From: Bacillota bacterium | GTDB lineage: Bacteria > Bacillota > Sulfobacillia > DUSP01 > JBFMCS01 | DNA length: 64,000 nt | Reading direction: 5' to 3' | NCBI GenBank assembly: GCA_040754315.1 | Contig: JBFMCS010000051.1 | Span: 74,840 to 138,839, forward strand | In this document: positions 28,524-58,977 of the stretch, piece by piece | Layout: the number at the start of each line of letters is the position of its first letter | Numbering within the stretch: position 1 is the first letter of the stretch | The notes under the pieces: generated by a model | Told to the model about the DNA's origin: nothing | The model's input: the letters and a program-made list of their open reading frames with translations, nothing else | Databases searched by the model: none | Translations under genes and position numbers: made by a program

Positions 28524-28880
28524 ATGTACAGGCTGATCCTGGTGCTGCTCTTTGCCTTGATTGTAGCGATGTTCGCCATACAGAACGCCCTGGTGGTGGA
28601 TGTGAACTTTCTGTTCTGGACCCTTCACGGGATCTCGCTTGCCCTGGTGATACTGGGCGCCACCGCGGCCGGAGCCACTATCGTGGGGATCCTCTACGTC
28701 TTCAGGCAGGTCCAGTTCATGAGGACCCGCAAAGACCTTCTTTCCCAGGTGAAGAAGATGGAGGGTGACCTGAAGGAGAAGTGCCTGGAGGAGAACAGGC
28801 TGAGGGAGCAGGTGGACGTCCTGCGAAAGGCCTTGGAGGCTCAGGCGGCTGGCGGTCCTGAGCCCGTTCAACAGGCCTGA
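28524..28880 (+). CDS. Small membrane protein (LapA/DUF1049-like) with a C-terminal coiled coil
   Basis: Two TM helices, then RTRKDLLSQVKKMEGDLKEK ... charged coiled-coil. Confidence 0.5.
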   Translation: MYRLILVLLFALIVAMFAIQNALVVDVNFLFWTLHGISLALVILGATAAGATIVGILYVFRQVQFMRTRKDLLSQVKKMEGDLKEKCLEENRLREQVDVLRKALEAQAAGGPEPVQQA

Positions 28881-31822
28881 TGGCTTCATTCTTCCCGCGC
28901 AGGCACCGGGAGAGAGTTCCATGGAGGGTGCTTCCCGGATGTGATGAGGGGAGCGCCCTTTCGCATAGCCTCGGCATTCACCCTGTCACTGCCCAGATCC
29001 TGGCCAGCCGCGGTATTGCCAATCCCGAGGCGGCTCGCCGCTTCCTCGATCCCCATACTCGCTACCTGGGGGATCCCTTCGATATGAAGGGGATGCCCGT
29101 GGCCGTGAAACGCCTTGAGAAAGCGTTTGAATCAGGAGAGCACGTGGCGATCTACGGGGACTACGATGTTGACGGTCTCTCCGCCACGGCCCTGCTGGTC
29201 CAGGTGTTCAGTAGCCTCGGTGTGGGGGTGTCCTGGTACATACCCCACCGCCTGGATGAGGGATACGGCGTCCATCGAGAGGCGGTGGAGGCCGTGGCGG
29301 GCCGGGGCGCATCCCTCATGGTGACGGTGGATACGGGGATAGGGGCGGCGGAGGAGGTCCGCCTTGCCCGGTCCCTGGGATTGGATGTGATAGTAACCGA
29401 CCACCACCAGGTGGTAGGACCGCTGCCGGAGGCGTGCGTGATAAACCCGCTCCAGGAGGGGTGTGCCTACCCCTTCAAGGGGCTTTGCGGGGCGGGGATT
29501 GCCTTCCAGCTGGCCAGGGCGCTTGCTACCCGGGGGCTGCTGGGAGCGGGGGGAGATGACATGGTGATGTCCCTTGTGGACCTGGCCGCCCTGGGAACCC
29601 TGGCGGACCAGGTTCCATTACTCGAGGACAACCGGATTATAGCGTGCGAGGGCATCAGGGCCATGGGGCAATCCCTCAGGGTAGGTCTCCAAGCCCTGGC
29701 TAAAGTGGCGGGCTCGAAGGGAGTGGACGAGTACAGTGTTGGGTTTGGCCTGGCGCCAAGGCTCAACGCTGCAGGTAGGATGGGCAGCCCCGAGCCGGCC
29801 CTGGATCTACTGCTCACCTCCGACGATGAGCGGGCGAAGGACCTGGCGGCCCAGCTTGAACTGCTCAATGTGGAGAGGCAGGCCACCGAGAGCATCATAC
29901 TCGAGGAGGCCGGCCACATCCTGAGCCTTGACCCGTCCCTCCTGGACGGTGTTGTGGTGCTGGCGTCCTGGGGGTGGCACCGAGGGGTGCTCGGCATAGT
30001 CGCCGCACGACTGGCCCAGGTCCACAACAGGGCCTGCATACTGGTATCTCTGGAAGACGGCATCGGGCGGGGGTCCGGGCGGAGCGTGCCCGGGGTAGAC
30101 CTCTTAGACCTGGCGGGGCGCGCCTCGGAAACCCTCTTGAGACTGGGGGGCCACTCCCAGGCCATAGGTGTGGAACTCAGGGAGGACAAAGTGGACCAGT
30201 TCAGGAGGGTACTAGGCCAGCTGGCCCCCCCTGCGCGCCCCAGGGAGGTTCTGGCGGATGCCAGGGTCTCCCTGGGGGAGATGACATCCCATCTAGCCGC
30301 TGAGATGGGGGCGCTGGCTCCCTTCGGGCACGGAAACCCCAGGCCGCTCCTGGCGGTAGGGGCGTGGGCCTGGTCTGTGAGGCCCGTGGGCAAGGACGGG
30401 GGCCACCTGCAGATGAGGCTTACGGACGAGGAAGGCTCGGTCAGCCTGGATGCCGTAGCCTTCGGAATGGCCGGGGCCCGGGATACCCTTGATGCCCCCT
30501 GTGACTTCCTAGTGAGGCTGGAGGAGGACACCTGGCGCGGCCGGAAGCGCCCCAGGGCCATAGTTGAAGACCTGCGGGCCTGGGAGGGCTGGGCCCATGA
30601 CTGGCTCAGATCCGGGGAGTATCACCGGTTTTTCGGCCACCGGGTGCTGGTTGCTTTGCCTGATGAGGTGCCGTTGATGGCCCCTGTGCCAAGGCCACCC
30701 CGGTTTCCCCCTGGTGGTCCAGTGCCTCAGGATGCCTCATGGCGGGTCCAGGACATAAGGCCGATTATGGAAAGGCTGGCTCGGGAGGCTCCGGGCCGCA
30801 CGCTGGTAGTATTGGCAGGTGCGCGGCAGGTGGTATGGTGGGCCCATCACCTCGCTATAGCTCACAGCGAACGTGCGGTGCAGGCCTGCCACGGCCTTGA
30901 GCCGGTGACGCCTCCAGATAACTACGAAGTGCTCGTGGTATCATTCGAGCTCTACCGCCAGTGGCGGCGCGCCTGCCCTAGGACATGGACGAACCCTGCC
31001 CTGGTGGCGTTCCCCGGCTGTCTTGAGGTGGAAACCTTGTCCGAAGGCAGGTGGGCGTGGGAAGAGGTGGGTCCCGACGTTACTGTTGTGGATGCCAAGC
31101 GTAACACAAACCGGGCAGCCTATGTGGAGAGCCTAGCCATGCAGGGACCGTGCTTCGTCTACACGAACACTCCCTCCAGATCCGGCCAGGTGGCAAAGGC
31201 GTTGCGCCAGGTACTGAAGCCCAAAGGGCTGGAGGCGATGTACTATCACCCTGGCCTGGGGGCGAAGGCCAGAGGCAGGCTGGCGGCGGAGTTCTCGGAA
31301 GGACACATCGCTGTCCTGGTGGGCACAGGAGCCGAGGGACTGCCCTCGAAGGGGATAGAGGTTGTCTTCTGGGACATGCCCCTGGGGCCGGCGGAGTTTC
31401 GTTTCACGTCCGCCCTCGCGCTCCCAGATGCCCGGGTGCACCTGCTATACAGCGCTGAGGATGCCGCCAGGGCGGATGCCATGGTACGCGCCGCGATGCC
31501 TGGCCGGGCGCTCCTGGTGAGCCTGTACACTGTCATAAGGGACCGTGGACCGGTTGCCTACCGGTGGCCAGAGGACATCGCAAGGATGCTCCCGGGCAAG
31601 CCTGCGAGGGCCCTGGTTTATGGCCTCGAGGTACTGATTGAACTTGGCCTGGTGCTGAAGGAGGGCACGGGCCCGTGGGCCCTAAGGGCCGTTGAGCCTG
31701 AAGAGAGGCGGGATCTGTGCGACAGCGTCAGGTTCAGGGAGGCATCCCTCATCCTCTCCGAATTCGAGGAGTGGCAGAGGCGGGCGCTGGGGGACCCGGT
31801 TCACGGACTGTCTGGCCTGTAG
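28880..31822 (+). CDS. recJ: Single-stranded-DNA exonuclease RecJ with a ~400 aa C-terminal extension that contains a helicase-C-like (RecA-fold) region
   Basis: DHH motifs (IYGDYDVDGLSA, TVDTGI, VIVTDHHQ) and DHHA1 (AAGRMG ... GGHSQAIG). The C-terminal portion has helicase motif V/VI-like text (AMYYHPGLGAKARGRLAAEFSEGHIAVLVGTGAEGLPSKGIEVVFWDMP) with no Walker A or B. Confidence 0.85.
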   Translation: MASFFPRRHRERVPWRVLPGCDEGSALSHSLGIHPVTAQILASRGIANPEAARRFLDPHTRYLGDPFDMKGMPVAVKRLEKAFESGEHVAIYGDYDVDGLSATALLVQVFSSLGVGVSWYIPHRLDEGYGVHREAVEAVAGRGASLMVTVDTGIGAAEEVRLARSLGLDVIVTDHHQVVGPLPEACVINPLQEGCAYPFKGLCGAGIAFQLARALATRGLLGAGGDDMVMSLVDLAALGTLADQVPLLEDNRIIACEGIRAMGQSLRVGLQALAKVAGSKGVDEYSVGFGLAPRLNAAGRMGSPEPALDLLLTSDDERAKDLAAQLELLNVERQATESIILEEAGHILSLDPSLLDGVVVLASWGWHRGVLGIVAARLAQVHNRACILVSLEDGIGRGSGRSVPGVDLLDLAGRASETLLRLGGHSQAIGVELREDKVDQFRRVLGQLAPPARPREVLADARVSLGEMTSHLAAEMGALAPFGHGNPRPLLAVGAWAWSVRPVGKDGGHLQMRLTDEEGSVSLDAVAFGMAGARDTLDAPCDFLVRLEEDTWRGRKRPRAIVEDLRAWEGWAHDWLRSGEYHRFFGHRVLVALPDEVPLMAPVPRPPRFPPGGPVPQDASWRVQDIRPIMERLAREAPGRTLVVLAGARQVVWWAHHLAIAHSERAVQACHGLEPVTPPDNYEVLVVSFELYRQWRRACPRTWTNPALVAFPGCLEVETLSEGRWAWEEVGPDVTVVDAKRNTNRAAYVESLAMQGPCFVYTNTPSRSGQVAKALRQVLKPKGLEAMYYHPGLGAKARGRLAAEFSEGHIAVLVGTGAEGLPSKGIEVVFWDMPLGPAEFRFTSALALPDARVHLLYSAEDAARADAMVRAAMPGRALLVSLYTVIRDRGPVAYRWPEDIARMLPGKPARALVYGLEVLIELGLVLKEGTGPWALRAVEPEERRDLCDSVRFREASLILSEFEEWQRRALGDPVHGLSGL

Positions 31823-31877
31823 GTGTATTACAGGGAAGTGCCTCGGTAGGCAGAACACGGTTCGTTTCAGTCCTGTC

Positions 31878-32165
31878 TCAGTCAGGTCCCCGGGTCCCGA
31901 CATTCGCGTTAAGCTCCTCGAACAGTTCACGAGCCGAAGCGTAGGATTTCGCTGGGATTCTTCCGCCAGCAATAGCTCTTACTTCCTGTATGGCTGCTTC
32001 GGTTTCAGCACTATAGATGGGCTGCTTCATCTCAAAAGGCAGGCCGCCTACCATTAAGGACTGATGCAGGAAGATGTTCACCGCACCGGTTACAGTAATG
32101 CTGAAATTTGGCGAAAAGCTGTTCTGCTTTTCTTTTTTGCTTCCGGGTCAATGCGAATGTTGATG
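31878..32165 (-). pseudogene. DinJ/RelB-family antitoxin gene with two frameshifts near its 5' end and no adjacent toxin gene
   Basis: ANINIRIDPEAKKK is in frame b. AEQLFAKF is in frame c. ITVTGAVNIFLHQSLMVGGLPFEM ... SAETEAAIQEVRAIAGG ... ARELFEELN is in the annotated ORF frame. The shifts coincide with the ttttcttttttgc run at 32119-32137. The downstream 55 bp reach the recJ stop. Confidence 0.55.
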
Positions 32166-32755
32166 TTTGCCGTCTTCGCCAACCTCACCTCCTCGTCCCC
32201 TCGTTGTACCCGTACGCACAATAACAGCACAACGTGAAACATTCTTCTGGGGAGTGAGCGGCTTGAAGCCTATCGCACTGCAAGCAGGACCCGAGCATCC
32301 CAGCACATATACCCACAACAGAAGATGCAGCAATAACTGGAACACAAGGCCCTTAACCACCCCGATAGAGTCAGGCTGAAGCAACAGGAGTTCAAACGGG
32401 GCCGCAGCCTACGCGGTTCCCAAAAAACGGCGCATCCCATGCGGGAGCCGTGTAGCGAACGAGCAGCAAGATTCAGAAAGAAAGCGGGCAGAAAAGGCAA
32501 GTATCACGGCGCGCAACAGGAGCAAACATCCCTAAGGCGGTCATGGACCTGAGCTCAGGGACTCCGCCTGGCCTTGCCGAGACTGCCTTATGCCGGCCCA
32601 TTCTGTATGGGCTCGCCCTCCACCGATCATACCACCTCACTCTGCAGTAGCACCGAATGCACTGCCCAGATTCCAGGGTTTTGATCCATGTTTTCGCATC
32701 GTCCTGAAGGAATCGGGCGGATCGCATAGAAAGATGTTCACGAAGCGGGAGAGAT

Positions 32756-32770
32756 TTCCGCATTGCGGAA
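32756..32770. promoter_or_regulatory. Perfect 15-bp palindrome TTCCGCA-T-TGCGGAA, 13 bp upstream of the carbamoyltransferase ORF start at 32783 (28 bp from the alternative ATG at 32798), candidate operator
   Basis: The inverted repeat was read directly. It sits in the only substantial intergenic gap (about 600 bp) before the 30-gene + strand cluster. Confidence 0.3.
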
Positions 32771-32782
32771 CTCTGTTCAAAC

Positions 32783-33793
32783 ATGGAAGGGAGGGCCATG
32801 CGAGTGAACCATCTGAAAGGGAGCGACCTGTTGTCCACGAAGGGCCTGACGCTTGAGGACCTCCGATTCATATTCGGTACCACCACAGACCTTAAGATGG
32901 CCCAGAAACGCGGCGAGATCCAGGAGATCCTGAAGAACAAGGTGCTGGCCATGATCTTCGAGATCCCCTCGACCAGGACCAGCATATCCTTCGAGACAGC
33001 CATGACCAAGCTGGGGGGCCACGCCATCTACCTGGGTACGGACAGGTACTGGGCAGGCAAGGCCAAGGAAGAGAGCTGGCTGGATACCTGCGGCACCATT
33101 GACCGGTACGCCGATGCCCTTGCCGCCAGGGTCATGTCACATGACGACCTGGTTAAAGGGGCTGAGAAGATGCGGATCCCCGTCATCAATGCATCCAATG
33201 ACTATGAACACCCCTGCCAGGCGCTGACTGATTTCCAGACCGTCCTGGAGAAGCGGGGGCGCTTTGAAGGCCTGAAGTACGTCATTACCTGGGCCTGGCG
33301 CCACTCGAATCCCCCGATCGGTCTGGTGAACTCCAGCATGCACATAGCAGCCAAGCTGGGCATGGAATTCGTCATCGCGTGCCCCGAGGGTTACGAGCCT
33401 CTAGACCAGGAGCTGGAGGCGGCGAGGGCCGAGGCGTCCAAGTACGGCTCGGAGATAAATATCGTGCATGACATGAGGGGGGCGGCCAGGGGCGCCGATT
33501 TCCTGAACATCTACAGCTGGGTATCACCCGAGGTCTTCCGGAAGGGAATAGAGACCCACTTCGCCGCACCGGCCCCCCATAATGAGTTCCCCGAGAAGTA
33601 CCAGCACTGGAAGGTAACTCCCGACGTCGTGGACCTTCTTAATCCGGCGGGTCTGATCATGCACTGCATGCCTGCGGCCAGGGGCGAAGAGGTAGTCGAT
33701 GAGGTGCTCGACGGTTCGAGGTCCATCATCTTCGATGAAGCCGAAAACCGGCTCCACGTCCAGAAGGCACTGCTGGCGCTGCTCATGGGGTGA
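32783..33793 (+). CDS. ygeW: YgeW-like (knotted, oxamate-type) carbamoyltransferase
   Basis: Carbamoyl-phosphate binding motif STRTSISFE. HPCQALTD. The YgeW-type motif ITWAWRHSNPPIGLVNS aligns with the AMTWAYSPSYGKP motif I recall from E. coli YgeW, rather than with the OTC/ATC motif. Confidence 0.7.
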   Translation: MEGRAMRVNHLKGSDLLSTKGLTLEDLRFIFGTTTDLKMAQKRGEIQEILKNKVLAMIFEIPSTRTSISFETAMTKLGGHAIYLGTDRYWAGKAKEESWLDTCGTIDRYADALAARVMSHDDLVKGAEKMRIPVINASNDYEHPCQALTDFQTVLEKRGRFEGLKYVITWAWRHSNPPIGLVNSSMHIAAKLGMEFVIACPEGYEPLDQELEAARAEASKYGSEINIVHDMRGAARGADFLNIYSWVSPEVFRKGIETHFAAPAPHNEFPEKYQHWKVTPDVVDLLNPAGLIMHCMPAARGEEVVDEVLDGSRSIIFDEAENRLHVQKALLALLMG

Positions 33794-35148
33794 GTGATAT
33801 GAAGAAGACAGTAGACCTCTTGATCCTTGGCGGGCTCGTGGGGACCATGGACCCGGCGTACACCACCATTCCGGACGGCGCCATCGCCCTGGACCACGGG
33901 ATCATCGTTGAGATTGGCTCCAGGAGGGAACTGGAGGATAGGTACGAGGCCCAGACGGTTGTGGAGGCATCCGGCCGTGTGGTGTTTCCGGGTCTGGTCA
34001 TCTCCCACACCCACATGCCCAGTGTCGTTGGCCATAACATGCCCGTGGACTTCTCCAAGTTCCACGACTTCATGGACCTCCTGACCAAGTGGTGGTGGCC
34101 TGATATCGAGGACCAGACAACGCCCGAGGACATATACTGGACGACCCTTTTTGCCTCCATGAAGATGCTGAAGGCAGGGACGACCTGCGTAGGTGAGATG
34201 GTGGAGGCGCCCATGGCGCTTCCGGGATGCCTTGACGCCAGCGCCAGGGCCTTGGAGGAGATCGGGCTGAGGGCCGTCGTGGCGTTTGAGGCCACCGAGA
34301 GGATAAGCCAGGAGAACGGGCGCCTGGGGATCGAGGAGAACCTGAGGTTCGTGAAGGAGCGAAACACCCCAGCATCGAGGATCCGGGGGCGATTTGGCCT
34401 ACACACCGTCGATACCTGTTCCCCCCAGATGATCCAGGTGGTCAGGCAGCTGGCCGGTGAAAACGGCGCAGGTATCTTCATTCACGTCTCTGAGATCCCC
34501 CCTAGCCTGACCGTTGCCACGCGGGGGACCACAGCCGTGCGGCTCCTGGACCAACTGGGTTGCCTTGGCCCTGACGTCCTGGCGGTTCACTGCATCCACC
34601 TGGATGAGGAAGAGATGGACCTCCTTGCTGCATCCGACGTCAAGGTGGCCCACACGCCCATGAGCAACATGCTCGGGGGTAACGGCGTATCTCCCATCCC
34701 GGACATGCTTGACCGGGGGATAACCGTGAGCATCGGTCACGACTGCTTCTTCACCCTGGACACCTTCGAGTACCTCCGGGCGGCGTACCTGATCCACAAG
34801 GTTCACCGGCAGAACCCCGGGCTGGTTCCCCCAAACCAGGCCTTGGAGATGGTGACCTCCAAGGGAGCCAGAGCCCTGGGTCTCGATGCCGAGGTGGGTT
34901 CCCTCGAGGTGGGCAAGCGGGCTGACCTGATCGTCGTCAAACCCCAGGGGCCGACCCCCGTGATCCCGGCGACCCTGATGCCCTTCATGGTGTCCGACGT
35001 GAACGGCCGGGACGTGGAGACGGTGGTTGTTGACGGGAGGGTCGTTGTGGACCAGGGGCGCGTGGTGACCGTTGACGAAGAGAAGGTCACCCGCAGGTGT
35101 ATCGAGAGGTCTAGTGCCCTCTGGCGGCGCGCTGGCGCCATTGATTGA
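33790..35148 (+). CDS. Amidohydrolase of the cytosine-deaminase/chlorohydrolase (SsnA-like) family
   Basis: Metal-ligand motif PGLVISHTHMP in the N-terminal barrel. Length and layout match the SsnA/TRZ-ATZ family. Confidence 0.75.
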   Translation: MSDMKKTVDLLILGGLVGTMDPAYTTIPDGAIALDHGIIVEIGSRRELEDRYEAQTVVEASGRVVFPGLVISHTHMPSVVGHNMPVDFSKFHDFMDLLTKWWWPDIEDQTTPEDIYWTTLFASMKMLKAGTTCVGEMVEAPMALPGCLDASARALEEIGLRAVVAFEATERISQENGRLGIEENLRFVKERNTPASRIRGRFGLHTVDTCSPQMIQVVRQLAGENGAGIFIHVSEIPPSLTVATRGTTAVRLLDQLGCLGPDVLAVHCIHLDEEEMDLLAASDVKVAHTPMSNMLGGNGVSPIPDMLDRGITVSIGHDCFFTLDTFEYLRAAYLIHKVHRQNPGLVPPNQALEMVTSKGARALGLDAEVGSLEVGKRADLIVVKPQGPTPVIPATLMPFMVSDVNGRDVETVVVDGRVVVDQGRVVTVDEEKVTRRCIERSSALWRRAGAID

Positions 35149-35163
35149 CTGGGAGGTGTCCAA

Positions 35164-37239
35164 GTGTCCGGTTACAGGGTGGGCATAGACATTGGTGGGA
35201 CCTTTACCGACGCTGTTGTGGTAGACGATGAGGGTCACATTGAGATCTTCAAGGATCCGTCGACGCCTCATGACCCGTCAATAGGGCTGATGAACTGCAT
35301 TAGGAAGGCGGCGTCCTTTTACGGCCACCCCTTTGGCGACTTCCTGGGGCGCATCGAGATCCTTGTGCACGGCACAACGGTGGCTACTAACACGATGATC
35401 CAGTACAAGGGTGCCAAGACCGGCCTCATCACCACCAAGGGCTTCAGGGATGCGCTGGAGATGTTCAGGGCGCACAAGAACGACATCTGGAACCTGTCCG
35501 AGGCGCGGCCCCCCATGATCGTCCCGCGCTATCTCAGGGTGGGTGTCCGAGAGCGGATAGCGTGGGACGGGGAGGTCATCGAGGCCCTGGACGAACGAGA
35601 GGTCCGGGAGGCCGCGCGCTACCTCCGGGATCAGGGCGTCATATCGGTTGCCGCGTGTACCCTGTTCTCCTACGTCAACGACACGCACGAGGAGCAGATA
35701 GGTGAGATCATCCGGCAGGAGTGGCCGGAGGCCCACGTATCTCTCTCCTCTGATGTCCTCAGGCAGATCCGGGAATTCGAGAGAACCTCGACAACCGTCG
35801 TTAACGCGTACGTATCCCCGGTTCTGGGCAGTTACCTAGCGAACCTCAAGGCCCAGCTCAAGGAAAGCGGGCTTCCCAGGGACTTTCTGGTGACAGAGTC
35901 CAACGGTGGGGTCATGTCCGCCGACTACGCCATCGGCCACGGCGTGACCACCCTGCTGTCTGGGCCCTCAGCAGGGGCCGTTGGGGGTCGCTTCTTCTCC
36001 GAGATACTGGGCATCAAGGACCTGATAATCACGGATATGGGGGGTACCAGCTTCGATGTGACCCTCATCAAGGACGGCGACTTCTCCATCACCCTTGATG
36101 GCTGGGTGTCAGGATACAGGATCGCCATCCCCAGCATAGACATCCATACCGTTGGCGCCGGGGGCGGGAGCCTCGCTCACATCGATGAGGGCGGCCTCCT
36201 GAAGGTGGGTCCCCTGTCCGCCGGGGCCGTCCCGGGTCCGGCATGCTACGGCCGCGGCGGCACGAGGCCTGCCGTGACCGATGCAAACCTCGTCCTGGGG
36301 TACCTCAACCCCGACTTCTTCCTGGGAGGGGAGATGAGGCTCGACGCCAGGACGGCACGGGAGGCCATCACGAGGCACATCGCTGAGCCGCTGGACATTG
36401 ATGTGGTCAAGGCGGCTCACGGCATATTCTCCGTTGTCAATAGCAATATGGCCGATGCGATACGGGTGGTCAGCCTTGAAAGGGGCCATGACCCCAGGGA
36501 GTGCGCCCTGGTGGCTGCTGGCGGGGCTGGACCAGTCCACGCCTCCATGCTTGCCAGGGAGGTCGGGATAGGGAGAATCATCGTGCCCATGGCGGCATCG
36601 GTGTTTTGCGCCCTGGGTATGCTGGAGTCCGACCTAAAACACGACTACGTCCGGACGATGAAGGGTGTGCTCTCCCAGCTGGACTGGGAGACCACCAGAA
36701 GCCTTGTGGACCAGCTGGAGACGGAAGGCAAAAGGACCCTCGAGGATGAGGGGGTACCCCCGGAGCGCATCAGAATGGAACGCTTCATGGATATGAGATA
36801 CGTGGGCCAGCACCATGAGGTGACAGTGGGTGTGCCGGGAGGCTGGCTCGGACCCGAGGCAGCCCCGGCGATAGCCGAGGCCTTCCACCAGGTGCACGAA
36901 CGGCTCTACACCTACTCAGAGCCTGGCAACGAGATCGAGGTTGTAAACCTGAGGGTCACCGCCATCGGCGAGGTGCCCAAGACGCCCCTGGCGTCTGCGC
37001 CCGAGACAGGCCCGGATGCCTCGGCATCCTTCAAGGGCAGGCGTGACGCCTACTTCGTGGAGGCAGGGGGACTTGTCCCCACAGCGCTCTATGACGGCCA
37101 CAGGCTCAGGCCCGGCAACACGGTGGAGGGGCCCGCCATCATCGAGATGGTGACCACCAGCGTGGTACTGTTTCCCAAGGATGTGGCCAGATTGGACCGT
37201 TACGGCAATGTCCTGGTGGAGGTGGCCCAGAATGGCTAG
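35164..37239 (+). CDS. hyuA: ATP-dependent hydantoinase/oxoprolinase family subunit A (HyuA-like)
   Basis: N-terminal VGIDIGGTFTDAVVVD. Whole-length hydantoinase_A architecture of 691 aa. Confidence 0.85.
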   Translation: MSGYRVGIDIGGTFTDAVVVDDEGHIEIFKDPSTPHDPSIGLMNCIRKAASFYGHPFGDFLGRIEILVHGTTVATNTMIQYKGAKTGLITTKGFRDALEMFRAHKNDIWNLSEARPPMIVPRYLRVGVRERIAWDGEVIEALDEREVREAARYLRDQGVISVAACTLFSYVNDTHEEQIGEIIRQEWPEAHVSLSSDVLRQIREFERTSTTVVNAYVSPVLGSYLANLKAQLKESGLPRDFLVTESNGGVMSADYAIGHGVTTLLSGPSAGAVGGRFFSEILGIKDLIITDMGGTSFDVTLIKDGDFSITLDGWVSGYRIAIPSIDIHTVGAGGGSLAHIDEGGLLKVGPLSAGAVPGPACYGRGGTRPAVTDANLVLGYLNPDFFLGGEMRLDARTAREAITRHIAEPLDIDVVKAAHGIFSVVNSNMADAIRVVSLERGHDPRECALVAAGGAGPVHASMLAREVGIGRIIVPMAASVFCALGMLESDLKHDYVRTMKGVLSQLDWETTRSLVDQLETEGKRTLEDEGVPPERIRMERFMDMRYVGQHHEVTVGVPGGWLGPEAAPAIAEAFHQVHERLYTYSEPGNEIEVVNLRVTAIGEVPKTPLASAPETGPDASASFKGRRDAYFVEAGGLVPTALYDGHRLRPGNTVEGPAIIEMVTTSVVLFPKDVARLDRYGNVLVEVAQNG

Positions 37240-39007
37240 AGGAGCGAAGGCTAGGTTCCAGGGAGCCGCGGATGCCATCACCATGTCCGTGGTATTCCAC
37301 CGCCTGCAGGCGATCAACAGGGAGATGGGGATCACCATGGTCAAGACATCGAGGTCCCCCATCTTCGCCGAGGTCCACGACTTCTCGTGCGCCATATGCG
37401 ATTGGGTGCCGCGGATCATCTCCCAGGTGGATGGCGTGCCTTCCCACACGGCGTCGTCCATGATGGCTGCCAAGGCCATATCCGACACCTTCAAGGGGGA
37501 CATCTCTCCAGGGGATGTGTTCGTCATCAATGACCCCTATAACGGCGGCACCCACCTGGCTGACGTCACGGTGATAAAGCCCATCTTCTATGAGGGTGAA
37601 CTGCTGTTCATGGGGGTCAACAGGGCGCACCACGCCGATGTGGGCGGCCTGTCCCCAGGCAGCTACAGCCCTCTTGCGACGGAGATCTTCCATGAGGGTA
37701 TCCGCATACCCCCGCTCAGGATCTACCGGAATGACAAGCCTATCAGCGATGTCCTGGAGATGGTCAGGATGAACACGCGCATGCCAGACCTCTTCCTCAG
37801 CGACATCAAGGCTCAGGTTGCCTCCTGCAGCGTCGCCGAGCGCCGGCTGGAGGAGATGGCAGCGAAATACGGTGTCCCGGCACTCAAGGAGATCCTTGAC
37901 GGGATACAGGAGTACGCCGAGATGAGGATGCGCCAGGAGATCGAGGCAATGCCGGACGGCGTCTACGAGGGTGAGACCTTCCTCGACGACGACGGTCACG
38001 GGCGCACGCAGGTAAGGGTGAAGGTCACCGTCACTATAGACGGGGACAGGATGTATGTGGACTTCGCGGGTACCGACCCGCAGACAGAGGGCTTCATCAA
38101 CAGCCCATTCGCCAACTCCTGTACCTCTGTCTACGTGTCTGTCCTGACCACCGCCAGGGGGGACGTGCCCCACAACGAAGGCGCCTACGCCCCCATAAGC
38201 ATCACGGCGCCGGAGGGCTGTCTTGTCAACCCCGTCCCGCCGGCCCCAGTCGCCAGCGCCACGCTGGACACGGCCTGCGCCATACTGGAGGCTATGTATA
38301 TAGCCTTGTCCAAGGCCCTGCCCGACAGGGCGCCCGCTGGCTGGAACCGGTGGTGCGGGCCGTCCATCGCGGGGATAGACCCCCGGAACGGCGAGTTCTA
38401 CGTGCAGTACGCGTTCTGCGGGATGGGCGGCGGAGGGGCGCTGCCCCACGCCGACGGCCTGAGCTATGTGGGCGATGGCATTGACCTCGGAGGGCTGACT
38501 GCCCCCAACATTGAGTCCAACGAGGTGGACTACCCGCAGATCACCGAGTACCACGAGTTCGAGACGGATTCAGGAGGGGCGGGCAAGTTCCGCGGAGGAT
38601 TGGGCGTTCGTTACAGGATCCGGTTCTACGATGAGAGCCCCTCCCTGATCATGTTCGGCGATGGCAAGGTAACCCCCCCATACGGCCTGTACGGGGGCCG
38701 GCCTGGCTCGACCAACAGGCCCATGGTGAACGAGGGCACCGGGAAAGAGGAGGATCTCCCCGCCAAGGGCATGAGCAGCCTGGCGAAGGGCGACACCTAC
38801 TCCATAAGGTCCTCGGGCGGCGGGGGCTGGGGGGACCCCCTGGAAAGGGATCCCGAGAGGGTTGCCTACGATGTCAAGTGCGGTTTCATCTTGCCCGAGT
38901 CGGCCCTGCGAGACTACGGAGTAGTTCTAGAGCCCGACGGCAGTGTGGATGAGTCCGGGACAGCCGAGCTGAGGACGAAGATGGCCGGAAGGGGGGTTAC
39001 GTCTTGA
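37232..39007 (+). CDS. hyuB: ATP-dependent hydantoinase/oxoprolinase family subunit B (HyuB-like)
   Basis: Hydantoinase_B-type sequence (FEGELLFMGVNRAHHADVGG, IDLGGLTAPN ... DSGGAGKFRGG). An 8-nt overlap with hyuA. Confidence 0.85.
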   Translation: MARGAKARFQGAADAITMSVVFHRLQAINREMGITMVKTSRSPIFAEVHDFSCAICDWVPRIISQVDGVPSHTASSMMAAKAISDTFKGDISPGDVFVINDPYNGGTHLADVTVIKPIFYEGELLFMGVNRAHHADVGGLSPGSYSPLATEIFHEGIRIPPLRIYRNDKPISDVLEMVRMNTRMPDLFLSDIKAQVASCSVAERRLEEMAAKYGVPALKEILDGIQEYAEMRMRQEIEAMPDGVYEGETFLDDDGHGRTQVRVKVTVTIDGDRMYVDFAGTDPQTEGFINSPFANSCTSVYVSVLTTARGDVPHNEGAYAPISITAPEGCLVNPVPPAPVASATLDTACAILEAMYIALSKALPDRAPAGWNRWCGPSIAGIDPRNGEFYVQYAFCGMGGGGALPHADGLSYVGDGIDLGGLTAPNIESNEVDYPQITEYHEFETDSGGAGKFRGGLGVRYRIRFYDESPSLIMFGDGKVTPPYGLYGGRPGSTNRPMVNEGTGKEEDLPAKGMSSLAKGDTYSIRSSGGGGWGDPLERDPERVAYDVKCGFILPESALRDYGVVLEPDGSVDESGTAELRTKMAGRGVTS

Positions 39008-40128
39008 AGGTAGCGGTTCTGGGATCCGGAAACGGGGGGTACGCGTGCTCCGCGGACCTTGCCCTAAGGGGTCACGAGGTGCGCTTGGCGGAGGCCCCCT
39101 CTCACGCTGAGCGCTTGAGGCCCCTTATCGACGATCCCTACATCGACGTCGTTAACATCGATGGCAGGCCGGTGGGCAGGGCTCACCTCTCGCTGGTTAC
39201 CTCCGATGCCGCCGAGGCGGTGACCGGGGCCGATGTGGTGTTAAACCCCGTGCCCATCTTCGCCTACAGGGTTTTTGCCCAGCTTGTGGCGAACACCATC
39301 GAGGAGGGACAGGTAGTCTGCACCCTGGGGAAAGGGGGCGGCTCTCTAGTCTACGCCAAGGCGCTCCGGGAGGCCGGCGCGGTCCTCCCCATCCTGGGAG
39401 AGACCAACACACTTCCCTACGGTGCCACTCGCCTTGGCCAGCACCAGGTCAGGATCGAATCCCCCACGGTCGAGCTCATAACAGCGGCCTTCCCTTCCCG
39501 GCGCACCGGGGAGGTGGTGGCCGCCTTCGGGGATCTCTACCCTGAGTACTCCATCCGGAAGGCCGCCAATGTCCTGGAGACCATCCTGGTGGACTACAAC
39601 GCCATCACGCACCCGCCTCCCATGATATGCAACGCTGCCAGGATAGCCTCCGGCTACGGGCAGGAGGACTTCCACCTGTTCGGGCCCTCGGAGAACCCCG
39701 AGGCTGTGGTAAGGGTAATCGAAGCGGTGGACAGGGAGAGGATTGCCCTCTCCAGGGCCCTGGGCATCAAGGCCTACACCCTTGAGGAGGAGATAAACCA
39801 CGTCGGTTTCAACCCCAGGGGCAAGGAGGGCAGGGTTCTGCCGCTGTTTGAGGCTATCCACACGGAGAAGCTGGAGGTCTGCGAGGGCCCCTATTCACTC
39901 ATGTCACGGCACCTGGTCGAGGACATCCCGTACGGGCTCGTCACCTTCTGTTCCCTCGGAGAGATGCTCGGGGTTCCGACCCCGGTCTCGAGGGCCCTGT
40001 CCGTGATGGCCTCGGTTCTAAATGGCGAGGACTACTTCCTGACCGGCAGGACGGTGGAGCGTCTCGGGATAGACCCGGCTTGGAGAATAGACCAGCTGTG
40101 CCGGTACCTGGAGGAGGGTCAGGCCTGA
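39004..40128 (+). CDS. NAD(P)-binding opine/octopine-dehydrogenase-family oxidoreductase
   Basis: N-terminal Rossmann motif KVAVLGSGNGGYA. The C-terminal half is like opine dehydrogenase family proteins. Confidence 0.5.
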   Translation: MKVAVLGSGNGGYACSADLALRGHEVRLAEAPSHAERLRPLIDDPYIDVVNIDGRPVGRAHLSLVTSDAAEAVTGADVVLNPVPIFAYRVFAQLVANTIEEGQVVCTLGKGGGSLVYAKALREAGAVLPILGETNTLPYGATRLGQHQVRIESPTVELITAAFPSRRTGEVVAAFGDLYPEYSIRKAANVLETILVDYNAITHPPPMICNAARIASGYGQEDFHLFGPSENPEAVVRVIEAVDRERIALSRALGIKAYTLEEEINHVGFNPRGKEGRVLPLFEAIHTEKLEVCEGPYSLMSRHLVEDIPYGLVTFCSLGEMLGVPTPVSRALSVMASVLNGEDYFLTGRTVERLGIDPAWRIDQLCRYLEEGQA

Positions 40129-40149
40129 GTTGCGGCCAGACCAGGGAAG

Positions 40150-40653
40150 GTGGGACGAACGGTGAAGGCCTTAGTCTCTTATCCGGATCTCTGCACTGGC
40201 TGCAGGCTCTGCGAGCTGGCGTGCGCCTTCCGGGTAGGGAAGACCATGCACCCGGCACGCTCGAGGATAACGGTGGTGAAGTGGGAGGATACCGGCTTCT
40301 ACCTTCCCTTCACCTGCCTGCAGTGTGAAAAGCCGGCATGTGCCTCGGCGTGTCCCGTTGAGGCCATAACGCGCCGAGAGGACACCGGTGCCATGGTGGT
40401 TGACGCCGAACGCTGCATAGGATGTGGGATGTGCCAGGTGTCATGCCCCTTTGGCGCTGCCTGTGTTGACCGGGGGACACGCGTGGCATCCAAGTGCGAC
40501 CTTTGCGACGGGTCGCCCAGGTGTGCTGAGATTTGCCCGGCCTCGGCCATCCGGTACCAGGATGAGCAGGAGGCGGCTGCGCACCGGCGACGGTCGCAAG
40601 TAGCCAGGGCGCTGTCCCATCCCGAGATCTTTCCGGGGGGTGAGGCGCGTTGA
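40150..40653 (+). CDS. Polyferredoxin (4x [4Fe-4S]), AorA-like electron-transfer subunit
   Basis: Four CxxCxxCxxxCP-type clusters. It lies immediately upstream of an AOR gene and overlaps it. Confidence 0.75.
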   Translation: MGRTVKALVSYPDLCTGCRLCELACAFRVGKTMHPARSRITVVKWEDTGFYLPFTCLQCEKPACASACPVEAITRREDTGAMVVDAERCIGCGMCQVSCPFGAACVDRGTRVASKCDLCDGSPRCAEICPASAIRYQDEQEAAAHRRRSQVARALSHPEIFPGGEAR

Positions 40654-42560
40654 AGTACCAAGGATACGCAGGCAAGGTGCTTAGGGTGGACCTGACGGAC
40701 CGCAAGGTGAGCGTCGAGGAGACCCCAGAGGAACTAGCCCGGGGCTTCCTGGGGGGTAACGGGTTCGGGGTGCGGGTGCTGTGGGACGAGACAGGGCCAG
40801 GGGTTGATGCCCTTGACCCGGGCAATCGCCTGGTATTCGCCTCTGGCCCTCTCTCTGGCACAACGTGGCCAGGAGCAGGGAGACTCGAGGTGATCGCCAA
40901 ATCACCGCTCACGGGCATCTACGGGGATTCCAACAGCGGGGGCTTCTTTGCCCCCGAGCTGAAGTACGCAGGGTTTGACATGGTGGTGATCACAGGGAGG
41001 GCCGAAGCGCCCGTCTTCCTGTCCATCACTCCGAGGGGGGTCGAGATCCGGGATGCCGGCCACCTCTGGAGTATGGGTGCCAGGAGCGCTGAAAAGGCAA
41101 TAGCGGCCCAGCTGGGGGACCCCGATGTGAAGACCTGCACGATAGGGCCTGCCGGCGAGAACCTCGTGCGCTTTGCCTCCATCCTGGTTTCCAGCGGGCG
41201 GTCAGCTGGGCGGTCGGGGATGGGTGCCGTCATGGGCTGCAAGAACCTCAAGGCCATCGCTGTCAGGGGTTTCGGCGGAGTTACCTTGGCTAGACCCGAC
41301 CTCTTCTATGATCTTAGCCTAAAGATGCACAAGGCCATTCGCGAGAACAAACTCTACGGCGTCGTGCACGAGTACGGCTCGCCGGGGTTGACCCCCCTGG
41401 TGAACATGACCGGGCGTTTCCCCACGAAGAACTTCCAGCTGGGTTCCTTCGAGCACCACGATAAGATCGGCGGCGAGGCGCTGAAGGCCCACTTCGTAAA
41501 GCACCTGGCGTGTTTCTCCTGCGGAGTCGGCTGCGACAAGATGTTCCACGTAAGGAGCGGCCCGTTCGCGGGGACCCGGTCAACGAGCCTGGAGTACGAG
41601 GTCCTCGGGGCGCTGGGCGCCGGGGTCCTGGTGGATGACCTGGACGCGGTTGTGAAGGCCAACAGCCTCTGTGACGAGCTCGGCATGGACGTGATCTCCG
41701 CTGGAAGGACCATCTCGTTTCTCATGGAGATCTTCGACAGGGGCATAGTGAGCCCCTCTGATATCGACGGGCTAGAGCCCCGGTGGGGGGATGCCCGCCT
41801 GGTGCTGGACCTACTCCAGCGGATCGCTGCCAGGCAAGGCATCGGCGATCTCCTGGCGGAAGGGGTACGCAGGATGGCCCAGAGGATCGGCCGGGGCTCC
41901 GAGGGGTACGCCATGGAGGTCAAGGGACAGGAGATTGCCTGCCAGGACGGCAGGGCCCAGCAGTCGATGGGGCTTGCGCACGTCACGTCTGCCAGGGGTG
42001 CCGACCACCTGAAAGCGTACCCCACCATCGATGAGACCGGGTTCCCGTCCAAGGCCATAGGGCGTTACGGGGAGCAGTACATGCCCGACCTCATCGATCC
42101 CCACTCCTCCCGGCACAAGGCAATGGTGGTGAAGGACGGGGAGGACTACGCCGCGGTCGTTGATTCGGCGGGCCACTGCAAGATCGGAGGGGCCTTCGTC
42201 ATTGCCGAGATATACTGGCCCGAAGAGGCCATGGGACTAGCGTACGCCACCGGCATGGAGGTGGACGAGGCGTCCTTGAGGGCTACCGGGGAGCGCATCT
42301 ACAATCTCATGCGCCTCTACAACGTCCGGCTTGGTATCAGCAGGGCCGATGACCGCCTGCCCAGGCGCTTCACAGAGGAACCGGCCCAGTCGGGCACCGC
42401 CACGGGCAGGGTCGTCGACCTTGACGCGATGCTAAAGGAGTACTACCGACTCAGGGGATGGGATCCCGAAAGGGGCCTTCCCGAGAGGGATACGCTCAGA
42501 AGGCTGGGCTTGGACTTCGCCATGGAGTGCCTGGAGAGGGAGGGCGTCTTGCTTGCCTGA
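40650..42560 (+). CDS. Tungsten-type aldehyde:ferredoxin oxidoreductase (AOR family), AorB-like
   Basis: 636 aa. N-terminal GKVLRVDLTDRKV. AOR cluster-binding region HLACFSCGVGCDK. Overall AOR length. Confidence 0.85.
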   Translation: MKYQGYAGKVLRVDLTDRKVSVEETPEELARGFLGGNGFGVRVLWDETGPGVDALDPGNRLVFASGPLSGTTWPGAGRLEVIAKSPLTGIYGDSNSGGFFAPELKYAGFDMVVITGRAEAPVFLSITPRGVEIRDAGHLWSMGARSAEKAIAAQLGDPDVKTCTIGPAGENLVRFASILVSSGRSAGRSGMGAVMGCKNLKAIAVRGFGGVTLARPDLFYDLSLKMHKAIRENKLYGVVHEYGSPGLTPLVNMTGRFPTKNFQLGSFEHHDKIGGEALKAHFVKHLACFSCGVGCDKMFHVRSGPFAGTRSTSLEYEVLGALGAGVLVDDLDAVVKANSLCDELGMDVISAGRTISFLMEIFDRGIVSPSDIDGLEPRWGDARLVLDLLQRIAARQGIGDLLAEGVRRMAQRIGRGSEGYAMEVKGQEIACQDGRAQQSMGLAHVTSARGADHLKAYPTIDETGFPSKAIGRYGEQYMPDLIDPHSSRHKAMVVKDGEDYAAVVDSAGHCKIGGAFVIAEIYWPEEAMGLAYATGMEVDEASLRATGERIYNLMRLYNVRLGISRADDRLPRRFTEEPAQSGTATGRVVDLDAMLKEYYRLRGWDPERGLPERDTLRRLGLDFAMECLEREGVLLA

Positions 42561-42843
42561 TCTGATCAGGGTTAAGGTCAAAGGCTATAACCTCATCTGG
42601 TCTGCCCTGGGCGGCCACGACGCGGAGGTCACCCTGGCCGCTCCGGCCACCTTCGCGGACCTCCTGGACCACCTGGTCAGAGAGAGGGGGGCCCTGGCCC
42701 AGGTTGTGCTGGACGGGCGGGAAGGCATCAGGCCGAACCTCAGGGTCTTCCTGAACGGCCGCCCTTTACCCAACGTATCGGGTCCGGAACAGTTGAATGA
42801 CGGCGATGAAGTCATCATGCTCATGGCGGCCGCGGGCGGCTGA
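42553..42843 (+). CDS. MoaD/ThiS-like ubiquitin-fold protein ending in Gly-Gly
   Basis: 96 aa with a C-terminal ... MAAAGG. The position after AOR parallels bacterial aor operons that carry MoaD-like maturation factors. Confidence 0.5.
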   Translation: MPDLIRVKVKGYNLIWSALGGHDAEVTLAAPATFADLLDHLVRERGALAQVVLDGREGIRPNLRVFLNGRPLPNVSGPEQLNDGDEVIMLMAAAGG

Positions 42844-42866
42844 CACATGAGCGGGGAGGCGTAGGA

Positions 42867-45370: not shown

Positions 45371-45423
45371 AGGCCAAGCACTGAGGCATCCAAGGGAGGT
45401 TAGACTTGGTGAACCCGTTGGCG

Positions 45424-48670: not shown

Positions 48671-48970
48671 TCGCTCGCCGGGACCCCAAGCAGAGAGAGG
48701 CTTTCCAGGAAGCAGCATCCTCCGGGGACCTGAGCCCTGAGGGTACTGGCCCAAGCCCGGTGGCGCCGGGCAGGGACTCAAGGTGCCGGTGGCCTGACCG
48801 CTGCCCGGGGCTGAAGCCCAGAGAGTCCATCTTTTGATGGCGGTTTTACTCAGGCGTTTTGACGGAGGCCAAGAGGTGTGGCAGGGGAGGTGAATGCACC
48901 GGTAGACGGCCTCGTGTCCCATGATAGGAGCCTGTGTTCCAGTGACTAACGTTGAAAGGTGGGAAGAGTC

Positions 48971-50338: not shown

Positions 50339-50345
50339 ATGAGAC

Positions 50346-50384
50346 GGGGCGCGGGGGCGCCCCGGGAGGACGCCCCCGCGGGAG
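50346..50384 (+). terminator. GC-rich inverted repeat (GCGGGGGCG ... CGCCCCCGC) just after the permease stop
   Basis: A 9-bp perfect inverted repeat with an 11-nt spacer, read from the sequence. There is no T-tract. Confidence 0.35.
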
Positions 50385-50408
50385 CCCCAAGTCACGCTTG
50401 GAGGTCTG

Positions 50409-51578: not shown

Positions 51579-51581
51579 CCT

Positions 51582-55869: not shown

Positions 55870-55876
55870 GGAGGGG

Positions 55877-58965: not shown

Positions 58966-58977
58966 GAGGTGACGGCA

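Follow-up and report, generated by a model that had tools for sequence, protein, structure and literature searches.

A conserved hydantoinase, opine-type dehydrogenase and carbamoyltransferase gene cluster in uncultured anaerobes and its possible role in cyclic-ureide catabolism

A thirteen-gene run on the + strand

A gene cluster encoding a carbamoyltransferase (CTase), an amidohydrolase, the two subunits of an ATP-dependent hydantoinase (HyuA and HyuB) and an opine-type NAD(P) dehydrogenase (OpDH) was analysed in a 64,000-nucleotide stretch of a Bacillota bacterium contig (JBFMCS010000051.1 of assembly GCA_040754315.1; the whole stretch is called the window below, and its G+C is about 62%). 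The core of this cluster, HyuA-HyuB-OpDH-CTase, recurs in bacterial and archaeal genomes, and we tentatively read it as a module for energy-conserving breakdown of a cyclic ureide.

The initial annotation had described five co-directional genes ending at 40128. Domains were called with Pfam (E values of 1e-29 to 1e-170 for these five genes) and families were assigned by the curated cut-offs of NCBIfam. All five open reading frames (ORFs) and their Pfam domains were found on the + strand, spanning 32798-40128 in a co-directional and overlapping arrangement, with junctions that either overlap by 4-8 nt or leave a gap of at most 23 nt and thus fit a single transcription unit. The proposed 3' limit did not hold, however, because the run continues unbroken past 40128 to 48670, giving 13 co-directional genes (32798-48670) of which most junctions overlap (ATGGCTAG, GTGATGG) while the remainder lie within 35 nt. 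The five genes are therefore real and represent the 5' part of a larger 13-gene unit, in which an aldehyde:ferredoxin oxidoreductase (AOR), a flavoenzyme reductase and an indolepyruvate-type 2-oxoacid:ferredoxin oxidoreductase (IOR) with an ADP-forming acyl-CoA synthetase (ACD) had been overlooked. The genes of the run are as follows.

32798-33793, + strand: CTase; Pfam OTCace_N and OTCace (ORF open from 32783)
33790-35148, + strand: amidohydrolase; Pfam Amidohydro_1
35164-37239, + strand: HyuA; Pfam Hydant_A_N, Hydantoinase_A and Hydant_A_C
37232-39007, + strand: HyuB; Pfam Hydantoinase_B, E 4e-170 (ORF open from 37181)
39004-40128, + strand: OpDH; Pfam Octopine_DH, 101 bits
40150-40653, + strand: poly-[4Fe-4S] electron-transfer subunit, AorA-like; Pfam Fer4 families
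40650-42560, + strand: AOR, tungsten type; Pfam AFOR_N and AFOR_C
42553-42843, + strand: MoaD/ThiS-like small protein; NCBIfam MoaD family, 35 bits
42867-44048, + strand: flavoenzyme with DHO_dh and two [4Fe-4S] (PydAc/UacX architecture), the reductase of the text; Pfam DHO_dh and Fer4
44048-45370, + strand: ACD alpha; Pfam CoA_binding and Succ_CoA_lig, TIGR02717 at 464 bits
45406-47349, + strand: IOR alpha; TIGR03336 at 602 bits, below the cut-off of 651
47205-47957, + strand: IOR beta; Pfam POR, true start probably near 47346
47945-48670, + strand: ACD beta (ATP-grasp), last gene of the tight run; Pfam ATP-grasp_5

Two of the starts were refined from the sequence. Translation of CTase was assigned to the ATG at 32798, which is preceded by GGAAGGGAGGG, and that of HyuB to the ATG at 37232, which lies inside ATGGCTAG, overlaps the HyuA stop codon and has GGAGG upstream; the resulting HyuB of 591 amino acids (aa) compares with 592 aa for its orthologue in locus L001. 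The ATG of ACD alpha at 44048 likewise overlaps the stop codon of the flavoenzyme gene, and a gap of 288 nt follows the ACD beta gene.

Conservation of the core and its companions

One genome of each GTDB species was scanned with an alignment of six OpDH orthologues, yielding 76 loci, three of which were set aside with an OpDH identity of only 30-44% and the rest of the cluster lacking, leaving 73. All loci of the scan come from metagenome-assembled genomes (MAGs), distributed over at least nine phyla (Spirochaetota, Chloroflexota, Bacillota, Cloacimonadota, Bipolaricaulota, Thermotogae, Atribacteria, Omnitrophota and Bathyarchaeia). An Asgard genome with the full locus (L005) was added by protein searches, as were OpDH homologues in Hadarchaea, Caldiserica and Nitrososphaerota MAGs. 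Counts out of 47 refer to the loci of at least 15 kb, with ORFs labelled by BLASTP against Pfam-annotated genes.

HyuA, HyuB, OpDH and CTase together, nearly always in that order: 42/47 loci
Xdh-like molybdenum subunit with FAD and 2Fe-2S partners: 31/47 loci
DHO_dh+Fer4 reductase and amidohydrolase beside the core, usually adjacent to each other: 22/47 loci
Either the Xdh-like set or the reductase/amidohydrolase pair: 37/47 loci
AOR or IOR/ACD: 40/47 loci
Grd-type reductase (GrdB): 8/47 loci
MtmB homologue, usually with a corrinoid protein, an MttB homologue and an OCD-family gene: 9/47 loci
Carbamate kinase: 7/47 loci

Chance juxtaposition of the core genes was rejected on the first of these counts. 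The AorA-like Fe-S protein accompanies AOR in 17 of the 47 long loci; IOR is conserved in 17 of them (18/73 overall), and copies of the acyl-CoA synthetase with 48-56% identity occur in 17 related loci. Those loci possessing neither Xdh nor the reductase pair are mostly of a Grd-bearing Spirochaete type, in which the 10-kb flank is filled by Grd genes. The Xdh-like enzymes of the relatives are 31% identical to XdhA, 29% to XdhB, 46% to XdhC and 28% to XdhD, and the equivalents of bovine E802 and R880 in their pocket vary by lineage, with E. coli XdhA itself being without them in the alignment. The carbamate kinase of the seven relatives passed the family cut-off (TIGR00746, 387 bits against 358) and is 51% identical to YqeA. 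One of them, the closest relative L009 (62-73% identity), keeps the gene order of the window with carbamate kinase inserted between the reductase and the synthetase. No YgeX homologue was found in the window or in 88 fetched loci (E < 1e-20), an M20 hydrolase gene of the YgeY family occurred in two loci only, and a Bmp/PnrA binding protein of purine-nucleoside type occurred in five. Most modules are brought into one run in the Anaerolineae-type loci L087 and L088, which read GntR-MttB-OCD-corrinoid-MtmB-Fer4-AOR-ThiS-CTase-reductase-amidohydrolase-HyuA-HyuB-OpDH-Xdh-ECF transporter. A full-text literature search found no description of the combination of HyuAB, an opine dehydrogenase and CTase, and neither of two preprints on the urate pathway mentions it.

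A corrinoid methyltransferase module consisting of an MttB homologue, an OCD/mu-crystallin gene, a corrinoid protein and an MtmB homologue shares the operon of the core in at least five phyla (L087:561-5138, L008:5372-9899 and L046:12738-16658; L001:8218-9603 on the - strand). Both methyltransferase homologues are of a non-pyrrolysine type, with uninterrupted ORFs that need no amber codon, and no NCBIfam model matched the MtmB homologue. The closest relative carries the MtmB homologue alone of the four genes, adjoining CTase, and none of the four was found in the window.

Two further genes were seen in Spirochaete loci. A transketolase-like ThDP enzyme (678 aa) directly follows CTase in L018 (12217-14250) and also in L038, and could act as a decarboxylase feeding AOR. 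A class-III aminotransferase located by GntR was considered as a pathway member and rejected, since in L011, L019 and L074 it stands beside an ordinary argF (29% identical to CTase) and is there probably a neighbour from arginine biosynthesis.

CTase combines an OTC-like backbone with YgeW-like loops

The initial annotation had called CTase YgeW-like and had asked whether it might instead be an anabolic enzyme. CTase missed both cut-offs for ornithine carbamoyltransferase (OTC) (256.5 bits against 280.85 and 271.4 against 306 for TIGR00658 and NF001986), and scored 239 bits against a cut-off of 500 for PTC, 188 bits for AOTC and 137 bits for ATC. Its scores to the YgeW models were lower still (80 bits against 453 and 76 against 500 for NF005538 and TIGR03316), with 25% identity to E. 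coli YgeW. Among solved structures P. furiosus OTC is the nearest, with both domains of CTase 37-44% identical to it. An AF2 model (pLDDT 94.3) retrieved 1a1s (P. furiosus OTC, TM 0.88), PTC and AOTC as top Foldseek matches, confirming a transcarbamylase fold with OTC, PTC and AOTC not separated, and YgeW was absent from the best 50 matches of this model.

At the residue level, the carbamoyl-phosphate site retains HPCQ and HCMP, while in STRTR the final Arg has become Ser (STRTS), as it has in about 90% or more of the family. The ornithine motifs are replaced: GDGNNVAHS has become TWAWRHSNPPIGLVNS, and DVWASMG has become YSWVSPEVF followed by an 11-residue insertion with a conserved Trp at its end (...HW). 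These replacements are conserved among 119 family members (47-69% identity), and homologues within this identity range were found in MAGs and metagenomes only. In a joint alignment, TWAW..NPP and SWVSPEV...HW of CTase match the YgeW loops TWAYSPSYGKP and SWAPYKV...DW, and such second-substrate loops do not occur in OTC, argF or PyrB. Given the sub-cut-off scores, the loss of the ornithine motifs and the YgeW-like loops, CTase represents a separate subfamily with an OTC/PTC-like backbone and a second-substrate site that looks YgeW-like, being an orthologue of neither OTC nor YgeW. The likeness to YgeW thus holds for two specificity loops and fails for the backbone and family membership. CTase is not an anabolic OTC or ATC, given both missed OTC cut-offs and the loss of STRTR and DxxxSMG. 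Public databases call CTase 'ornithine carbamoyltransferase' and the amidohydrolase of the cluster 'MTA/SAH deaminase', and both names are probably wrong for the family.

Hydrolases, dehydrogenase and redox enzymes of the run

The full domain sets of both hydantoinase subunits are present. HyuA scored 530 bits against caprolactamase (6yra) and 487 bits against N-methylhydantoinase (7hk5), compared with 397 bits for acetophenone carboxylase and 296 bits for acetone carboxylase. In NCBIfam, CapA reached 737 bits against a cut-off of 1000 and ApcC 423, with both caprolactamase equivalog cut-offs (1000) being missed. By this ranking HyuA/HyuB group with the hydrolytic ATP-dependent lactamases and not with the carboxylases, in agreement with the ATP-dependent hydantoinase proposed initially.

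The amidohydrolase had been described as SsnA-like and of the cytosine-deaminase family. It scored 280 bits against 444 and 278 against 455.5 for SsnA (NF005540 and TIGR03314) and 292 against 609 for chlorohydrolase, and is 26% identical to E. coli SsnA and 23% to GuaD. On these scores it is placed in the chlorohydrolase/SsnA/deaminase group as a distant relative of SsnA below all cut-offs, so that the first description stands as a group-level relation and not as family membership. The second does not stand, because no cytosine or creatinine deaminase model appears among its best 25 NCBIfam hits. The enzyme is predicted to open or deaminate a ring and to be functionally paired with the reductase at 42867-44048. 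The two genes are 7.7 kb apart inside one run in the window, and the same 393-aa DHO_dh+Fer4 architecture adjoins the amidohydrolase in L005, L008 and L087.

The reductase consists of an FMN barrel with two [4Fe-4S] and has no NAD(P)H domain, an architecture described for PydAc and UacX (PMC7332683; 10.1101/2025.05.19.654654). It scored 154 bits against a cut-off of 335 for PreA, and 92 bits to DHODH-1B and 70 bits to DPD among solved structures, and is predicted to be a ferredoxin-linked reductase of a ring C=C bond. The window AOR (40650-42560) matched P. furiosus AOR at 429 bits and BamB at 239 bits and is of the canonical aldehyde-oxidising type; the position of the MoaD-like gene next to it is taken by a ThiS-family gene in L001 and L088.

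OpDH matched CENDH (1bg6) over its full length (E 1e-41, residues 3-357) and exceeded the PF02317 cut-off of 30 bits with 101. The catalytic residues of CENDH (H202, R292 and D297) have their counterparts in H203, R302 and D307 of OpDH, and these are invariant in the six orthologues from different lineages. The end-to-end alignment and the aligned His/Arg/Asp positions bear out the opine-dehydrogenase likeness noted initially, and OpDH is accordingly a true relative of the opine dehydrogenases.

A Grd operon of non-canonical subtype

A Grd operon (54493-59445) lies downstream on the same strand as the cluster. Its genes were recognised by matches to Pfam GRDB and Gly_reductase, and reading through the TGA revealed the Sec codon of GrdB.

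54493-55866, + strand: GrdB; in-frame TGA (Sec) at 55597-55599 with conserved sequence on both sides
55877-57178, + strand: GrdE
57168-58676, + strand: GrdC
about 58609-58962, + strand: Trx
about 59107-59445, + strand: GrdA

The window Grd proteins scored 484 bits against a cut-off of 800 for GrdF, 462 against 602 for GrdB, 414 against 775 for GrdH and 259 against 780 for GrdG. The best-scoring models of both the window and the Spirochaete Grd are of the sarcosine type (GrdF, GrdG), far under cut-off, and neither Grd reaches the cut-offs for glycine or betaine. Ten of the 73 loci, nine of them labelled Spirochaete, have GrdB-GrdE-GrdA-Trx-GrdCD directly after CTase, apart from a transketolase-like gene between CTase and GrdB in one of them. 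Given that the Spirochaete CTase-adjacent Grd is 50-55% identical to that of the window and shares its score pattern, the two belong to the same non-canonical subtype. The link between the cluster and Grd proposed initially is thereby supported by comparative genomics.

Neither GrdD nor thioredoxin reductase was found anywhere in the window, and the fused GrdCD of L006 matches the window through its GrdC half only. Directly after GrdA, 59435-62578 encodes a NuoE/HoxE-like, a NuoF-like (Complex1_51K) and a 2Fe-2S/4Fe-4S HoxU/NuoG-like protein, which together resemble the module through which a bifurcating hydrogenase or formate dehydrogenase takes in electrons from NADH, and which may be an electron source for Grd. 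In Christensenellaceae-type loci (L051:5667-5758; L063:1999-5405), tRNA-Sec, SelA and SelB stand immediately 5' of HyuA and near GrdC/GrdD, linking the cluster to selenoprotein synthesis.

Genes and signals flanking the run

All convincing genes from the RecJ-like gene to the end of the window are carried by the + strand. Those flanking the run and the Grd operon are listed here.

28880-31822, + strand: RecJ-like protein, 980 aa
48959-50338, + strand: APC-family amino-acid permease; Pfam AA_permease_2
53505-54338, + strand: IclR-family regulator, upstream of the Grd genes; Pfam IclR

The APC permease is a possible importer of the substrate, and homologues of it occur inside the cluster in L025, L034, L070 and L077. 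Together with an iron alcohol dehydrogenase and a second AOR (630 aa), which is a separate copy from that at 40650-42560, it occupies the interval between the cluster and Grd (48959-53474). The IclR regulator is 50% identical to an IclR divergent from CTase in the closest relative (L001/L009).

On the 5' side, a gene pair at 25417-28424, just upstream of the RecJ-like gene, encodes a MoxR-like AAA ATPase (AAA_lid_2, Mg_chelatase) together with a VWA-domain protein. The 975 nt between that gene and CTase (31823-32797) hold no convincing gene; Pfam matched neither of two minus-strand ORFs (31682-31972 and 32473-33027), and G+C drops to 0.57 across 32001-34000. A terminator-like hairpin is present at 32113-32132, and the gap matched no Rfam family. 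Scanning 31500-50500 for promoters and terminators gave counts no higher than the shuffled expectation. By Rfam gathering thresholds, no relevant riboswitch or ligand RNA was found in the window and 14 related loci, where the matches were one tRNA, one tRNA-Sec and one Clostridiales-1 RNA. The tRNA gene (4042-4114, - strand) is the sole match within the window, and the Clostridiales-1 RNA (114 bits) lies 3' of CTase inside a Lachnospiraceae version of the cluster (L032:13802-13953, + strand).

A possible pathway of energy-conserving ureide breakdown

In the reductive urate pathway, XdhD reduces urate and YgfK or UacX reduces the ring; SsnA then opens the ring to give ureidomethyl-hydantoin, and the second ring is opened by a D-hydantoinase. 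YgeW next attacks one ureido group by phosphorolysis, supplying the carbamate kinase YqeA with carbamoyl phosphate, and YgeY with YgeX leads to pyruvate (10.1101/2025.05.19.654654; 10.1101/2025.04.24.650524). We consider it quite possible, if somewhat short of probable, that the cluster with the core HyuA-HyuB-OpDH-CTase serves energy-conserving catabolism of a cyclic ureide, most likely a purine-derived one. This reading draws on the tight gene run, on the conservation of the core in the long loci, on a HyuA nearest to hydrolytic lactamases, on the retained catalytic residues of OpDH, on the frequency of AOR/IOR among the companions and on Grd following CTase in the Spirochaete-type loci. It draws equally on the companions (Xdh, the reductase/amidohydrolase pair, carbamate kinase and, in a few loci, the M20 hydrolase and the Bmp/PnrA binding protein), which parallel the reductive urate pathway, and on the second-substrate loops of CTase, which align with those of YgeW and not with OTC.

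From gene content, protein families, altered motifs and the way in which the module and its companions are conserved, all described above, we infer substrates, an order of steps and a role for OpDH as follows. The ferredoxin-linked PydA/UacX-like flavoenzyme would reduce a uracil-like ring, which the SsnA-related amidohydrolase would then open, with the XdhABC-like molybdenum enzyme acting beforehand in most relatives. At the expense of one ATP, HyuAB would open the remaining hydantoin-type ring to yield one or more N-carbamoyl amino acids, the ureido group(s) of which CTase would phosphorolyse to carbamoyl phosphate, allowing a carbamate kinase encoded outside the window to form ATP. In an NAD(P)-linked step OpDH would oxidise the C-N bond at the alpha-amino or secondary-amine centre thus freed to give a 2-oxo acid, and IOR together with the ADP-forming acyl-CoA synthetase would convert this to the next shorter acid plus ATP. 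AOR would handle an aldehyde, and decarboxylation followed by AOR might be an alternative way of shortening. Finally, the dedicated Grd of the new subtype would reduce a glycine-type product to acetyl phosphate. One speculative chain that would use every module runs from 2,3-diureidopropionate through albizziin, 3-ureidopyruvate, N-carbamoylglycyl-CoA and N-carbamoylglycine to glycine.

Several observations weigh against this proposal. Foremost among the observations that it does not cover is the corrinoid methyltransferase module, present in 9 of the 47 long loci, given no role by the proposed steps and accounted for by none of the explanations considered here. Xdh is absent from the 64-kb window, and the purine-binding Glu/Arg pair of xanthine oxidoreductase is retained in only some of the Xdh enzymes of the cluster. 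Carbamate kinase, through which the initial annotation had expected ATP to be gained, is clustered in the seven relatives including the closest, where it holds a syntenic spot, but is encoded nowhere in the window. No purine or hydantoin permease of the NCS1/NCS2 type was seen, the transporters being of APC, ECF, NMT1, Bmp and SBP_bac_5 types, and neither the genome scan nor three protein searches found a cultured carrier, all carriers coming from MAGs and metagenomes. The analogy to SsnA and YgeW consists of 25-26% identity, two loops and gene context, with both proteins below cut-off. An opine dehydrogenase would not normally be expected to oxidise a primary or ureido amine, and Grd is known to act on C2 units (X-CH2-COO-), whereas the reductive urate pathway as known yields a C3 unit at its end.

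Alternative substrates

Catabolism of creatinine or N-methylhydantoin, the main idea of the initial annotation, would have the amidohydrolase deaminate creatinine to N-methylhydantoin, HyuAB convert it to N-carbamoylsarcosine and CTase split this into sarcosine and carbamoyl phosphate, after which sarcosine could be reduced by Grd (acetyl phosphate plus methylamine), cleaved by OpDH (methylamine plus glyoxylate) or demethylated by the MtmB-like protein. This would account for the 487-bit match of HyuA to a solved N-methylhydantoinase, for the sarcosine models GrdF and GrdG scoring best with both B-component proteins of Grd, and for the non-pyrrolysine MtmB homologue, which adjoins CTase in the closest relative and shares the operon in 9/47 loci. 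A creatininase-family gene near the L008 cluster, an acetate kinase adjacent in L001, and accessory 2-hydroxyacid dehydrogenase and DHDPS-family genes that would fit a glyoxylate hub point the same way. However, it leaves the PydA-like DHO_dh+Fer4 reductase and the Xdh-like enzymes, one or the other of which occurs in 37/47 loci, without a role. The amidohydrolase is not near the cytosine/creatinine deaminase group within its best 25 NCBIfam hits, and no amidohydrolase accompanies the core within the fetched flank of the Anaerolineales-type loci L003, L016, L037 and L080 and of eight Grd-type Spirochaete loci. Grd itself stays far under the sarcosine cut-offs (484 against 800 and 259 against 780). 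The known anaerobic degraders are moreover reported to carry N-carbamoylsarcosine amidase genes, and the N-methylhydantoin hydrolase of Clostridium sp. FS41 works without ATP (PMC4417704, PMC5364220). We regard creatinine or N-methylhydantoin as an unlikely substrate but a serious rival.

A 5-substituted hydantoin derived from an imidazole or pyrimidine acid seems more improbable again. Histidine or ergothioneine could give rise to hydantoin-5-propionate, and orotate or imidazole acetate to 5-carboxymethylhydantoin or dihydroorotate, candidates that HyuAB would convert to N-carbamoyl-glutamate or -aspartate and CTase to glutamate or aspartate plus carbamoyl phosphate, with OpDH forming the 2-oxo acid, and IOR and the acyl-CoA synthetase the acid plus ATP. 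The nearest solved relative of the reductase is dihydroorotate dehydrogenase, and reductase, cyclic amidohydrolase and CTase together mirror pyrimidine biosynthesis in reverse, in line with what is established for orotate fermentation and for EC 3.5.2.4. An oxaloacetate-decarboxylase-like gene stands before the core in L056 and beside OpDH in L052, IOR and ACD suit a 2-oxo acid product, and the MttB-family genes would suit a betaine such as hercynine or ergothioneine. Yet glutamate and aspartate are not Grd-type substrates although Grd directly follows CTase in Spirochaetes, CTase is farther from ATCase (137 bits) than from OTC, and the flanks showed no genes for histidine utilisation or for ergothionase. 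Very improbable, finally, is catabolism of an opine or opine lactam, in which HyuAB would act as a lactamase on a cyclised opine, OpDH would release an amino acid and a 2-oxo acid, and CTase would degrade a citrulline-like product. HyuAB homologues have been proposed to open opine lactams (the aga genes of Agrobacterium, agropinic acid), OpDH is a genuine relative of the opine dehydrogenases with intact catalytic residues, and SBP_bac_5 ABC transporters, a type that includes opine-binding proteins, occur in Cloacimonadota loci. But CTase is without ornithine- or citrulline-binding motifs, the reductase/amidohydrolase pair, the Xdh-like enzymes and carbamate kinase would go unexplained, and the habitats of the cluster (subsurface, digesters, sediments) are not linked to opines.

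Implications of a possible purine-type ureide fermentation

Returning to the purine-derived ureide, the broader proposition that the HyuAB-OpDH-CTase core and its companions represent an unrecognised purine-type ureide fermentation, widespread in uncultured anaerobes including Asgard and probably Bathyarchaeia, is one we regard as rather doubtful. If true, hydrolytic steps would be replaced by up to three or four sites of substrate-level phosphorylation (carbamoyl phosphate once or twice, acyl-CoA and acetyl phosphate), and the cluster would bring a new CTase specificity, the first catabolic role of an opine-type dehydrogenase in ureide breakdown and a new class of Grd substrate. For decades little was understood of how purines and ureides are broken down anaerobically, and the partial solution reached in 2025 concerns gut bacteria; the cluster would extend it to Anaerolineae, Spirochaetota, Cloacimonadota, Bipolaricaulota, Atribacteria and several archaeal groups, the dominant uncultured anaerobes of sediments, the subsurface and digesters, where much nitrogen and energy is drawn from nucleic-acid necromass. 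Targets for enzymology are the OTC-fold enzyme, an opine dehydrogenase in an unexpected setting and a Grd subtype matching none of the three known substrates.

Gaining ATP from a ureido group via a transcarbamylase is a known principle. The novelty initially claimed for phosphorolytic decarbamoylation in place of an amidase falls away, given that YgeW already performs it in the reductive urate pathway (10.1101/2025.05.19.654654; 10.1101/2025.04.24.650524). What is new is the enzyme set, the CTase subfamily, the involvement of OpDH and the Grd subtype.

Comparison with known systems

With the OTC and PTC of the arginine-deiminase and agmatine-deiminase pathways, CTase shares the fold, much of the carbamoyl-phosphate site (S-T-R-T core, HPxQ, HCxP) and, as predicted, the catabolic direction and the pairing with carbamate kinase for ATP. 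By contrast, its DxxxSMG and GDGNN motifs are replaced, Ser is fifth in STRTR, its scores are below cut-off and its gene context is another. OpDH resembles the opine dehydrogenases (CENDH of Arthrobacter, octopine dehydrogenase) in its whole-length alignment and catalytic His/Arg/Asp, whereas the cluster enzymes form a separate tight clade with 50-62% identity across phyla, found only beside HyuAB and CTase in anaerobes; the known enzymes serve opine synthesis or use, not ureide catabolism.

The creatinine pathway comprises creatinine deaminase, the ATP-dependent N-methylhydantoinase HyuA/HyuB, N-carbamoylsarcosine amidase and, in anaerobes, sarcosine reductase. It resembles the cluster in the two-subunit ATP-dependent hydantoinase, a deaminase-family amidohydrolase and a Grd-type reductase with a sarcosine-type best match. 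It differs in that CTase stands in the cluster where the hydrolytic N-carbamoylsarcosine amidase would be, the amidohydrolase is not of cytosine/creatinine deaminase type, Grd is sub-cut-off, and the creatinine pathway offers no place for the reductase, Xdh, OpDH, AOR or IOR.

The urate clusters of E. coli and C. difficile consist of xdhD-ygfM, ygfK or uacX, ssnA, hyuA, ygeW, yqeA, ygeY and ygeX. The cluster likewise has a PydA-type reductase, often beside a chlorohydrolase-family amidohydrolase, a predicted hydantoin-opening step and a CTase predicted to form carbamoyl phosphate, and relatives of the window cluster add an Xdh-family molybdenum hydroxylase and, in some of them, carbamate kinase. 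By contrast, the cluster has ATP-dependent HyuAB for the D-hydantoinase, an OTC-backbone enzyme (25% identity) for YgeW and an amidohydrolase that is 26% identical to SsnA and below the SsnA cut-offs; none of the 88 fetched loci has YgeX and nearly all are without YgeY, the window is without Xdh, and OpDH, AOR, IOR/ACD and often Grd or the corrinoid methyltransferase set are added. The likeness is thus one of logic, in which reductive dearomatisation and two ring openings would be followed by ATP formation from ureido groups.

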